60,827 nucleotides of DNA. Origin: Chlamydiia bacterium. GTDB taxonomy: Bacteria > Chlamydiota > Chlamydiia > Chlamydiales > SM23-39. The stretch's first letter is position 1; each line of letters begins with the position of its first letter. Below, one piece after another: positions 31,593 through 53,578 of the stretch. The translations under genes were made by a program, and so were the position numbers. The DNA lies in the NCBI GenBank assembly GCA_016213175.1, contig JACRBF010000029.1, positions 1 through 60,827 of the forward strand, written 5' to 3'. The notes under the pieces are model-generated. The model saw only the letters and a program-made list of their open reading frames with translations. It had not been told where the DNA came from and did no database searches.

Positions 31593-31769
31593 TTAGAGAC
31601 TGTTAACGGATTTGGTTTCTGTCGATTTTCGGGACCTTTTGAGCCGATTTTCGATGCAAAATTGGGGGGCAATATCAACATCCAGTATATTGCCCCCCAA
31701 TTTTGCATCGAAAATCGGCCAAAAATCCTCCGAAAAGCGACGAAATCCATATCCGTTAACAATCTCTTA
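31593..31769. repeat. Family A palindromic element, full long form (177 bp)
   Basis: Two ~80-nt arms in inverted orientation around the centre caacatccagt. Termini are ttagagactgttaacgg / ccgttaacaatctctta. The core is gccgattttcgatgcaaaattggggggcaatat. Confidence 0.9.
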
Positions 31770-50707: not shown

Positions 50708-51610
50708 TTATTTAAATGATTGCAAATGACACGCAACTCGATGATTAGGAGCTACTTCTCGAAAGATGGGCTTTTCTTGGCGGCATTGCGTTGTTGCGTA
50801 GGGGCATCTAGGAGCAAAGGGACAGCCTACGAAAGACGGAGCTGTCTGTGACAAAGGGGAGTGGGCTGGAGAGCGAGAAACGCTACGGATTTTCGGGATA
50901 GAGGAGAGGAGAATCTGGGTATAGGGATGGAGAGGTGTATGATAAAGAATCTCTGTAGGTGCTGTTTCAACAAATTCCCCTTGATACATGACGGCGACCT
51001 CTTCTGAGATGTAGCGAACCATGGAGAGGTCGTGGGAAATGAAGAGGTAGGTAAGCTCGAGTTCTTTGCGCAGACGAAGGAGGAGATTGACGATCTGAGC
51101 TTGGATGGAGACGTCAAGCGCGGAGATAGGTTCGTCGCAAACGATGAAATCGGGGTTGAGAGAGAGCGCTCTAGCAATGCCGATGCGCTGCCTTTGCCCG
51201 CCGCTGAATTCATGAGGAAATCGATTTTTGGCATTTTGAGGCAATCCCACAAGATCCAGAAGTTGTTCAACCTGAGATGGCATGCTGTGGATGATTGATG
51301 GCTCTTCGAGGATGTCGCCTACGGTCATCCTAGGATTGAGTGAGGAGAAAGGGTCTTGAAAGATCATCTGCATACGGCGCTGTAGATCTTTACGTGATTT
51401 GGCAATGGGACTGCCTTCGAAGAGGATTTGCCCTGAAGTGGGCTGAATGAGTTGCAGGAGCAGGCGGCCTAGTGTTGATTTTCCGCAGCCGCTTTCGCCT
51501 ACAAGTCCTAGGATCGTCCCTCGCTTCAGGAAAAAAGAGATGTTTTTGACGGCGCTGAGCGTCGTTTTACCAAGCGTATAGATTTTGGAGAGATTGTGTA
51601 CTTCGATCAC
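50708..51610 (-). CDS. oppF: oligopeptide/dipeptide ABC transporter ATP-binding protein OppF
   Basis: Walker [18 protein letters not shown], Walker B FIVCDEPISALD, and the C-terminal oligopeptide-ABC extension. Trimmed to GTG 51610 (SD aagagg 5 nt upstream), because the longer ORF reads into repeat A5. Confidence 0.9.
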   Translation of the reverse strand: MIEVHNLSKIYTLGKTTLSAVKNISFFLKRGTILGLVGESGCGKSTLGRLLLQLIQPTSGQILFEGSPIAKSRKDLQRRMQMIFQDPFSSLNPRMTVGDILEEPSIIHSMPSQVEQLLDLVGLPQNAKNRFPHEFSGGQRQRIGIARALSLNPDFIVCDEPISALDVSIQAQIVNLLLRLRKELELTYLFISHDLSMVRYISEEVAVMYQGEFVETAPTEILYHTPLHPYTQILLSSIPKIRSVSRSPAHSPLSQTAPSFVGCPFAPRCPYATTQCRQEKPIFREVAPNHRVACHLQSFK

Positions 51611-51780
51611 TAGACCTCTTGCGTAATTAAGGTTCTGTCGACTTTCCTGTTCTTTTGAGCCGATTTTCGATGCAAAATTGGGGGGCAATATACCGGCGAT
51701 ATTGCCCCCCAATTTTGAAATCGAAAATCGGCCAAAATAATCCGGAAAATCGACGAACCCTTAATTACGCAAGAGGTCTA
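51611..51780. repeat. Family A-related palindromic element (170 bp) with perfect 22-bp terminal inverted repeats
   Basis: tagacctcttgcgtaattaagg ... ccttaattacgcaagaggtcta. The internal core gagccgattttcgatgcaaaattggggggcaatat / atattgccccccaattttg is shared with 31593-31769. Confidence 0.95.
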
Positions 51781-52719
51781 CTTATACCTCCAGCAAGCAG
51801 TATTGCCGAAAAAGGGGGGATCTGTTTGGCAGATGGGGGCTGCGTGAGGGCATCTTTCCGCAAAAGCGCATCCTTTGGGTGGATCGAGGAGGTTTGGCGG
51901 CATCCCTTCGATGACTTGTAAGGGGCCTTTGTGGGTGGGGAGCGATTGCAAAAGCATTTGCGTATAGGGGTGCTGCGGACGTTCCAGGACCTCTTGAACA
52001 GAGCCCTGCTCTACGATTTTACCGGCGTAGAAGACAAGAATGCGATCGCACGTTTCAGCGACGACGCCGAGATCGTGGGTGATGAGAAGGAGGCTTGTAG
52101 AGGCATCTCTTTTACGGAATAGGTCGAGAATTTGTGCTTGCACTGTGACATCAAGAGCGGTGGTAGGTTCATCAGCAATCAGCAGGCGGGGGCCGCAAGC
52201 AAGGGCAATCGCGATCAAAACCCTCTGCCGCATCCCTCCGCTGAGCTGATGGGGATATTGTTTAAGCCTCTCTTCTGCCTGAGGCAGTTCCACTTGACGT
52301 AAGAGAGTGAGAACCCGCGCGCGCGCATCGAAAGTGCCTTTCTGGACTATTTTGTGGTGTACGAGCGCCTCTTCGATCTGGGCGCCAATCGGCATTGTTG
52401 GATTGAGCGCGCTCATCGGATCTTGAAAGACCATACCGATTCGTTTCCCTCGGATTTTTTGGAGCTCTTTTTCGCTTTTTTGCAAGAGATTTTCTCCTTC
52501 GAAGAGGATAGAGCCTTCGATATTGGATGCAGGACTCAATCGGGTAATTGCCTGAACGGCAGCGCTTTTCCCACAGCCACTTTCTCCGACGATGCCGACT
52601 GCCTCACCTGTGTTTACTGTAAAAGAGATGCCACGCACTGCGTGTAGCTTCTGTCCGTAAAGAGAAAAGGTGACGGAGAGATCTTGGATTTTGAGGAGAG
52701 GGGCTGTGGGTGGCGTCAT
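51778..52719 (-). CDS. oppD: oligopeptide/dipeptide ABC transporter ATP-binding protein OppD
   Basis: Walker [17 protein letters not shown], Walker [16 protein letters not shown] 52719 lies 2 nt after the oppC stop codon (52724-52726). The TAG stop is the terminal 3 nt of repeat A5. Confidence 0.9.
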
Positions 52720-52723
52720 GGGG

Positions 52724-53578
52724 CTACCTGCGCAGTCTCGGATCGAGCGCGTCGCGAAGCGCATTTCCAAGGAGATTGAAGGAGAGCATCGTCAGGGTAA
52801 TCATCGATGCGGGAATCAGCAGGCGCCACGGGTAGTAGCGCATGGCGCTAAGTCCGTCATTGACCATCACGCCCCAGCTCGCAGCAGGCGCTTGAATCCC
52901 GAGACCGAGGAAACTGAGAAAAGATTCGGTAAAAATGGCGGTTGGGATCGTGAGGGTCATCGTAGCGATGATCGGTCCGATAGCGTTCGGAATGAGGTGG
53001 CGCAGCAGGATACGGGTGGATGAAGCGCCGATGGCCCTTGCTGCTGTGATGTAATCAAATTCTTTAATCTGGAGGATTTGACTGCGGACAATCCGCGCCA
53101 TATTGATCCACCCCGTTGCTGTCATTGCGATCAAAATCGTCACGATCCCGCTGCCTCGGATGACTGTGAGGAGAATGACGACGAGTAAATAGGGGATTGC
53201 GTAGAGGACATCGCAGATGCGCATCATTGCCTCTTCTGTTTTTCCTCCTGAGAAAGCGGCAACAGAACCCCATAAAATCCCGAGGCTCAAATCAATGAGC
53301 GCTGCAGAAAAGCCGATAAAGAGCGAAATTCTGGCTCCCCACCAGACCCGTGTAAATAGATCGCGCCCCAGTTCGTCGCTGCCAAACCAAAAAGCGCTGC
53401 TTGGAGGCGTGTTTTTTAACTCTAAATGGATATCGTAATAGGCGTAAGGGGAGAGGAGAGGGCCTGCCCATGCCATGATCAGGAGGAAGGCAAGCGTCCA
53501 GAGAGCAGCTATGGCAGGACGGTTCATGAGGAGGCGTCGCCACGCATCCTCCCAAAATCCAGGGGATTGATTACGCAT
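52724..53578 (-). CDS. oppC: oligopeptide ABC transporter permease OppC
   Basis: N-terminal FWEDAWRRLLMNRPAIAAL, typical of OppC/DppC. 6 TM with an EAA-type loop. Confidence 0.9.
   Translation of the reverse strand: MRNQSPGFWEDAWRRLLMNRPAIAALWTLAFLLIMAWAGPLLSPYAYYDIHLELKNTPPSSAFWFGSDELGRDLFTRVWWGARISLFIGFSAALIDLSLGILWGSVAAFSGGKTEEAMMRICDVLYAIPYLLVVILLTVIRGSGIVTILIAMTATGWINMARIVRSQILQIKEFDYITAARAIGASSTRILLRHLIPNAIGPIIATMTLTIPTAIFTESFLSFLGLGIQAPAASWGVMVNDGLSAMRYYPWRLLIPASMITLTMLSFNLLGNALRDALDPRLRR

Follow-up and report, generated by a model that had tools for sequence, protein, structure and literature searches.

How can a palindromic insert lie inside an operon, exactly between two genes, so that the stop codon of the first gene and the start region of the second are both partly made from it? 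This question is raised by the minus strand of the window, the term used here for the whole analysed stretch of 60,827 nucleotides from a chlamydial genome, in which positions 51611-51780 form a near-perfect 170-nt palindrome between the genes of an OppD-type and an OppF-type ATPase (Table 1). Genes of OppC- and OppB-type permeases are found upstream of oppD; the oppB and oppC open reading frames (ORFs) overlap by 8 nt (window 53571-53578), and such tight packing is usual in the opp operon, a rule broken by the 168-nt insert that separates oppD from oppF. The genome assembly comprises 1.19 Mb in 61 contigs (86% complete, 48% GC), with a total genome size of about 1.2-1.4 Mb. We consider it likely that the insert is a non-autonomous foldback transposon (MITE) which entered the AGT of a GTGA overlap between the two genes and by which the translational punctuation was rebuilt, and that it is best regarded as a tolerated selfish insertion rather than as a recruited regulator.

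Position, target site and consequences of the element at the oppD-oppF junction

The gene-strand text across the junction reads ...GCT TGC TGG AGG TAT AAG TAG-ACCTCTTGCGTAATTAAGG ... CCTTAATTACGCAAGAGG-TCTA-GTG ATC GAA GTA CAC.... The whole 170 nt are palindromic with 80-nt arms of 79% complementarity, and the terminal repeats are perfectly complementary over 21-22 nt, which confirms the 170-nt palindrome with perfect 22-nt ends that a preceding sequence-only reading of this DNA had placed between oppD and oppF. An 18-nt core of the element end occurs three times in the window at an expectation of 0.04, and the RNA of the 170 nt is predicted to fold into a single hairpin of -118 kcal/mol (z = -15), with a G6/C6 stem-loop at the tip of the element core. 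The element itself measures 168 nt, and no long ORF is confined to it. An Rfam scan of the element returned hairpin-like matches below the gathering threshold and nothing above it (best match mir-240 with 38 bits at a threshold of 67.5), and a simple scan of positions 51450-51950 found no promoter and no canonical terminator. The true start of OppD probably lies downstream of the first TTG of its ORF; for the exact OppD ORF there was no database record, and a contig scan with OppF returned only distant ATPases from Firmicutes and Chloroflexi.

Table 1. Features of the oppD-oppF junction in the window
Feature	Position	Strand	Remarks
OppD-type ABC ATPase ORF	51778..52770	-	
Native SD TGGAGG	51787..51792	-	in the conserved C-terminal Cys-Trp-Arg codons of oppD
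Upstream target-duplication copy AGT (gene strand)	51780..51782	-	contributes the T with which the oppD stop begins
oppD stop TAG	51778..51780	-	duplication T plus element A and G; inferred pre-insertion stop TGA, same codon
Element proper, 168 nt, subfamily 1, full-length foldback	51612..51779	-	AGACCTCTTGCGTAATTAAGG ... CCTTAATTACGCAAGAGGTCT
5' arm, perfect 22-bp terminal stem	51759..51780	-	inward stops: TAG at nt 1 and TAA at both nt 14 and nt 18
Conserved core	51633..51758	-	about 80-89% identity to two other subfamilies with different ends, and to copies in other genera
3' arm, terminal stem	51611..51632	-	holds the SD, fully paired in the predicted transcript fold
SD-like AAGAGG	51615..51620	-	carried by the element; followed by TCTA (4 nt), then GTG
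Downstream target-duplication copy AGT	51609..51611	-	its GT forms the first two bases of the oppF GTG
oppF start GTG	51608..51610	-	VIEVHNLSK aligned with MIEV(K/R)NL of relatives; ABC ATPase profiles from residues 1-2
OppF/DppF-type ABC ATPase gene, 300 aa	50708..51610	-	

The suggestion of the sequence-only reading that the palindrome is an inserted mobile element is borne out by 72 ends of its own subfamily in this genome and by a target duplication in 16 of the 17 complete copies: the three bases before AGACC... are the same as the three bases after ...GGTCT (permutation p < 1e-5). The duplicated trinucleotides are AAT in eight copies, ATT in four, ACT in two and AGT and ATG in one each, and the base past the duplication is G at 38 of the 72 ends; the preferred target of this subfamily would be about (C)A-N-T(G). 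Because of this target, ATG, TTG, GTG or CTG triplets adjoin the ends. The same reading had also described TA dinucleotides as the flanks of the element, which has to be replaced by a 3-bp duplication of the form A-N-T, here AGT. A TA duplication as in the IS630/Tc1-mariner or Correia type was rejected, as it leaves unexplained that 16 of 17 copies agree in the bases beyond both TAs and as the empty site that it implies exceeds the junction of relatives by 3 nt. If the constant A and T are assigned to the element and the duplication is reduced to 1 bp, the identical empty site is obtained.

Removal of the element together with one AGT gives ...TGGAGGTATAAGTGATCGAAG, which reads ...TGC TGG AGG TAT AAG TGA TCG AAG... 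and in which the oppD TGA and the oppF GTG overlap by four bases (GTGA); the junction predicted for the empty allele is ...TATAAGT followed by GATCGAAG. Element-free junctions, for which a search in relatives had been proposed along with the description of the element, were found in all seven related genera in which the oppD/oppF junction was read (OppF 61-66% identical): the two genes overlap in 7/7 and are separated by a spacer in 0/7, and in no genus do the 170 nt form the conserved spacer that had been put forward as the opposite outcome. The overlap is ATGA in five of these relatives (G005, GAATGAGC; G014, CGATGACC; G002, ACATGAGC; G017, ACATGATCGAAGTG; G003, CAATGATCGAAGTG), TAATG in one (G001, AAATAATGG) and 8 nt long in one (G006, ATGATTGA). 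The reconstructed site AAGTGATCGAAGT is in register, base for base, with CAATGATCGAAGT and ACATGATCGAAGT (G003, G017); the comparison is one between different genera, judged by structure and register and not as a base-for-base allele. The metagenome contigs that were scanned for the reconstructed empty junction and for the filled junction contained neither. In the inferred empty site the native SD TGGAGG lies 5 nt before the GTG, from which it is now separated by 176 nt (a shift of 171 nt), and a TGGAG(G/A) motif is present at the equivalent place in five of the seven relatives. On these comparisons the insertion of a mobile element at the oppD/oppF junction is established.

The way in which the insertion could leave both genes readable is suggested by the ends themselves. 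The first bases of the element are AG and its last are ...AAGAGGTCT, and the target consists of A-N-T plus a following G; entry into the AGT within the 4-nt GTGA overlap, with duplication of AGT, would have three outcomes, namely an oppD stop at the same codon, a regenerated GTG and an element SD 4 nt before this GTG. The oppD stop has changed from TGA to TAG at the same codon, so the OppD protein is unchanged, and the A and G of the TAG are element bases, just as the sequence-only reading had it. The oppF GTG is rebuilt from the second AGT copy, and the native SD is replaced in position by the element's AAGAGG-TCTA-GTG. The claim that the element supplies the SD of oppF holds for the presence of AAGAGG 4 nt before the GTG, while its use in oppF initiation is what we infer, with the anti-SD taken as canonical and the 3' end of the 16S rRNA missing from the assembly. 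The spacing of 4 nt (3 nt if the pairing core is GAGGT) lies at the short extreme of the range that is workable in model bacteria. Read inward, the element end together with the T of the duplication has a stop in each reading frame within its first 20 nt; in a post hoc comparison, such three-frame stops are present in 0.3% of random 22-mers of the genome, an SD-like motif at the corresponding distance in 5.9% and the combination of the two in 0.013%. As this copy is young, being up to 98% identical to a sister copy, the intact oppF is no proof of continued expression, and the functional argument rests on essential genes with the same arrangement.

The element family in this genome and in related genera

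A comparison of the 170 nt with their own genome matched 97 places, all subfamilies together, and the mini-transposon copies in the genome number about 80. Closest to the oppD/oppF element are full-length copies on contigs C35, C55, C12 and C20 (98, 96, 95 and 94% identical), to which about ten copies at 87-88% identity and many shorter matches are to be added. The copies fall into three subfamilies with a common central core and differing ends of roughly 16-22 nt: subfamily 1, to which the oppD/oppF copy belongs (end AGACCTCTTGCGTAAYTAA.., 72 ends on many contigs, duplication A-N-T) and which has 17 complete copies, subfamily 2 (end GAGATTGTTAACGG.., 56 ends, duplication T-N-A) and subfamily 3 (end GAGGATGTCTACAAAG.., 33 ends, duplication T-N-A). 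The common core spans about 125 nt with roughly 80-89% identity between copies whose termini are unrelated (e.g., window 51612-51779, window 31593-31769 and C23:4164-4338), which suggests that ends were exchanged on a conserved core. Subfamily 2 copies (171 nt; window 31596-31766, also on C29, C46, C35, C6, C1, and C57) contain two frames free of stops throughout, in both orientations, and such elements could be readable in frame like the RPEs of Rickettsia, a strategy opposite to that of subfamily 1. Furthermore, 36-bp palindromes that consist of two subfamily-1 ends without a core occur in a related genome (G065:C3:68008-68043, G065:C4:65226-65261, and G065:C12:11032-11067), and they may be deletion derivatives or an ancestral shell that received the core. 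Contigs start or end within copies at C1:1-172, C29:1-155, C59:3-154, C55:19115-19255, C12:27889-28028, C48:21018-21157, and C30:3326-3442; with so many contigs ending inside copies, the element family is a main cause of the fragmentation of the assembly.

The family is not restricted to this genome. Within the chlamydial family of its host, the subfamily-1 end was found, with at most one mismatch, in 58 of 103 genomes, representing 29 of 53 genera, with up to 71 ends per genome, and the reversed control pattern gave 0-2 matches per strand. Many genera of the family also possess the element core, with about 80-88% identity. In genera with this level of core identity the OppF proteins reach no more than 61-66%, which suggests that the element spread horizontally or that its core is under strong constraint.

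By its features the element belongs to the MITEs: it is small and non-coding, has inverted ends and a duplication of fixed length, and is present in dispersed copies for which element-free sites exist in relatives. No autonomous insertion sequence (IS) with the same ends was found, and transposases with the profiles PF01609 and PF13586 are absent from the genome's own assembly, in which a partner transposase may be missing because the assembly is 86% complete; PF13586 occurs in 4 of the 103 family genomes. A search for end pairs in three copy-rich genomes gave one pair of IS size (1.5 kb, in G096), which encloses a transporter gene. In this composite-like arrangement (G096:C10:48774-50285) two inward-facing subfamily-1 ends surround the gene of a 472-aa membrane transporter, and one of the two ends lies just before the ATG of a neighbouring frame (...GGTCT-AAT-ATG-AAT...). 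Elements of the IS5 family (IS1031/IS427 type) are marked by a T-N-A duplication, GAG or GA ends and a DDE transposase. Measured against these marks the 3-bp length of the duplication fits, the motif is A-N-T and not T-N-A, and no matching transposase was found. IS5-type elements were identified in G017 and G065, and their ends are unrelated to subfamily 1. The one in G065 (G065:C1, about 1477-2361) measures about 885 bp, is bounded by the ends GAGACTATCCTAATAAAATTT, contains two overlapping ORFs of 167 and 130 aa and has a match to PF13586; IS5-type elements with GAG ends therefore exist in the chlamydial family. For subfamilies 2 and 3, with their T-N-A duplication and GAG ends, mobilisation by IS5-type transposases would be plausible. 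REP and BIME sequences are imperfect palindromes of 20-40 bp that carry GTAG or CGTC at their head and do not duplicate the target, and an assignment to this class (RAYT, Y1) was ruled out by the 168 nt, the long inverted ends and the 3-bp duplication.

Copies at the boundaries of other genes and the predicted transcript fold

The arrangement before oppF is found again at other loci. At 12 of the 72 subfamily-1 ends an ORF of at least 150 aa starts inside the duplication; among random sites the corresponding rate is 2.0% with the motif A-N-T and 8.2% with A-N-T-G, and such starts are mostly internal codons there. Nine of these ORFs besides OppF were scanned (DnaE, AccC, Fmt, RuvA, TadA, XerC, RlmB, UDP-glucose 6-dehydrogenase, and citrate synthase); they are full-length housekeeping proteins with family profiles from residues 1-11, the profile match of citrate synthase being from position 27 of 437. 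For RuvA the public gene call has the same start and the homologues have the same length, those with a named source being from "Chlamydiae bacterium RIFCSPHIGHO2_12_FULL_49_9" and "Chlamydiota bacterium," from which the host is taken to be an uncultured chlamydia of environmental origin. ORFs of at least 100 codons end between -7 and +22 of the element at 25 ends: the junction TAG terminates ten of them, a host TAA just upstream of the element six and the internal TAAs nine, whereby the last group gains a short element-encoded tail, and a few of the 25 are probably antisense ORFs. Both sides come together in the layout stop-element-start, which is present in five copies, with an inferred empty site AGTGA at oppD/oppF in the window and at an upstream ORF and tadA (C60), and TAATG where an upstream ORF is followed by dnaE (C35), accC (C46), or citrate synthase (C9).

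How far this placement reflects a function of the ends has to be judged with the target in mind. The abutment of start codons is in part a target preference, as NTG triplets at both ends follow from the target motif, and the SD in the end could be a coincidence, the end sequence being also constrained by transposase binding. The ends of subfamilies 2 and 3, which have no outward SD, are within 3 nt of such a start at 0 of 56 and 1 of 33 ends, respectively; where these subfamilies are near starts, they lie 10-17 nt upstream, and a host SD-like motif is kept in six of seven copies (TAAGGA.., TTAGAAGG.., TAAGAGGG.., TTAGAGGAG..). This placement fits the need for an SD, in a comparison that is confounded by their T-N-A target. 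In the ruvA copy (C55:14724-14891) the native SD GAGGTG is stranded beyond the element, the end of which reads AGGAGG and not AAGAGG, and in the xerC copy (C20:30823-30991) the arm facing the SD has changed from CCTCTT to CCTACT, which would unpair the SD. The SD change at ruvA and the arm change at xerC may be compensatory, as two anecdotes; a comparison by eye of SD mutations between gene-abutting and other ends, in a small sample, gave no clear difference. Solo ends, in which the partner arm is missing, make up four of the 12 gene-abutting ends.

In the predicted fold of a 281-nt junction transcript, the SD is unpaired with a probability of 0.0004. When a ribosome footprint is forced open to 9-15 nt past the first base of the stop codon, i.e., over approximately the first 10-16 nt of the 5' arm, this probability rises to about 0.2: the SD has left the main stem, and what remains is a weak local hairpin. 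The 22-bp terminal stem would thus hide the SD until a ribosome terminating at the oppD stop melts it, and the hairpin would set stop and start side by side, so that translational coupling could be preserved. As stop and start lie at the two sides of the stem base, termination could, on this folding model, expose the SD near the ribosome, and it is from the predicted fold that we infer a hairpin-mediated coupling of oppD and oppF translation. Where no upstream ribosome arrives, as at ruvA and xerC, a hairpin of -118 kcal/mol is predicted to bury the SD and another escape would be needed. Candidate escapes are cleavage by RNase III, the gene of which is present in the genome, internal transcription starts, and a partner arm that is mutated (as on C20) or missing.

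It is tempting to go further and to regard the subfamily-1 ends as having evolved as portable translational punctuation, made up of inward three-frame stops, an outward SD and a start-rebuilding A-N-T(G) duplication, with which the element could colonise stop/start overlaps and sites before the starts of essential genes. On termination the ribosome would melt the stem and initiate anew on the far side of the 168 nt, which would make the element a transposon-borne coupling device, loosely comparable to a bacterial ribosome shunt. We put this extension forward tentatively, as a possibility against which we still lean.

Explanations for the insertion, relation to known elements and implications

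Several other explanations of the insert at oppD/oppF have to be weighed, the most serious of which is that it is polar and mildly harmful: the hairpin would terminate or destabilise the transcript or block initiation, oppF would be under-expressed, and the copy would be too recent for purging or for decay of oppF. The youth of the copy (94-98% identical to four others), the full pairing of the SD in the predicted fold and the tip, which is a GC-rich stem between runs of A and U, are all consistent with this explanation, which we regard as unlikely since the same end adjoins the starts of the essential genes dnaE, accC, fmt, and tadA, where lost translation would be lethal, and since some of these essential-gene copies belong to the older group at 87-88% identity. 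The lack of a canonical terminator in the simple scan and the position of the stop codon, at the very point at which a ribosome would open the stem on termination, argue in the same direction. It is considerably less probable that the element was recruited as a regulator, i.e., as a processing site for RNase III (or RNase E) or as an attenuator that gives oppBCD and oppF a separate stability or translation. A long perfect duplex would be an ideal substrate for the RNase III that the genome encodes, and there is precedent in the Correia and ERIC elements (PMC2229807); however, relatives are without the element at this junction, which is therefore not a conserved feature of the operon, and about 80 copies are located at unrelated loci. 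The two ATPase subunits of the ABC importer (Opp) are required in equal amounts, and a differential expression would be of no obvious benefit.

Hardly credible, finally, is a start of OppF at TTG 51712 inside the element, which would give the protein an element-encoded N-terminal extension of 34 residues. The frame is open from this TTG, and to that extent the assertion of the sequence-only reading that GTG 51610 is the only plausible start was too strong; but OppF of the relatives begins at the residue aligned with GTG 51610, which by this alignment of the N-termini is the homologous oppF start, the ABC ATPase profiles begin at residues 1-2, and the TTG, which lies in the tip stem, is preceded by no SD. 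The explanation that we prefer, a tolerated MITE insertion into the GTGA overlap with rebuilt punctuation, accommodates the essential-gene copies as well: the stop, start and SD properties recur across the family and would let copies persist at the gene boundaries of a compact genome, and insertions probably survive even before essential genes because the ends rebuild the stop and supply a ribosome-binding site.

Among the known palindromic elements, the Correia elements (NEMIS) of Neisseria are similar in their size of about 100-170 bp, their long inverted ends, the hairpin formed by the whole length of the transcript, the many copies at gene boundaries and co-transcription. Their 155-bp form has stops in all frames, and processing by RNase III was proposed (PMC2229807). 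They differ in a TA duplication and in the promoter and IHF motifs credited to their ends, whereas the chlamydial element has A-N-T, an outward SD and a regenerated start; there is no sequence similarity, and the phylum is different. The chlamydial element shares with Correia, ERIC and YPAL sequences that it is a palindromic MITE co-transcribed within operons. For ERIC/IRU and YPAL, elements of enterobacteria and Yersinia, a ribosome-dependent refolding of the hairpin was proposed to affect the fate of the mRNA (PMC2229807); these elements are not reported to supply a downstream SD or to abut starts, and they differ from the chlamydial element in target and sequence. With IS5-derived MITEs the element has in common a 3-bp duplication with a variable middle base, and subfamilies 2 and 3 have GAG... 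ends and T-N-A; a related genome carries an IS5-type IS with ends of GAGAC..., while no IS with AGACCTCTTGCG ends was found. Like the RPE of Rickettsia, it is a palindromic repeat that is tolerated in a compact genome of an obligate intracellular bacterium by way of an interaction with reading frames. In contrast to RPEs, which are read through in frame inside genes, subfamily 1 lies between genes, stops all frames and restarts translation. The predicted coupling resembles that of the coat and replicase genes of the RNA phage MS2: base pairing with sequence that includes or adjoins the upstream stop would keep the downstream SD closed until termination exposes it; unlike in MS2, the two partner strands here belong to opposite ends of a mobile element, 150 nt from each other, and the coupling is a prediction. 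The searchable literature contained no description of MITEs in Chlamydiota, and neither an A-N-T duplication nor an end with three-frame stops and an outward SD nor a start-rebuilding duplication was found described in it. As judged from sequence, the element thus appears to differ from known palindromic MITEs in three ways: the A-N-T duplication, the combination of stops and an outward SD in one end, and the duplication that rebuilds a start.

The usual view of MITEs is that only spare intergenic DNA tolerates them; here they directly precede the start codons of genes such as dnaE, accC, fmt, and tadA and also occupy overlaps within operons. If it is true that the ends provide a stop and a ribosome-binding site, a selfish element would reduce its own cost by carrying translational signals of its host, and the element would need to be considered when start sites and operons of these chlamydial genomes are annotated.
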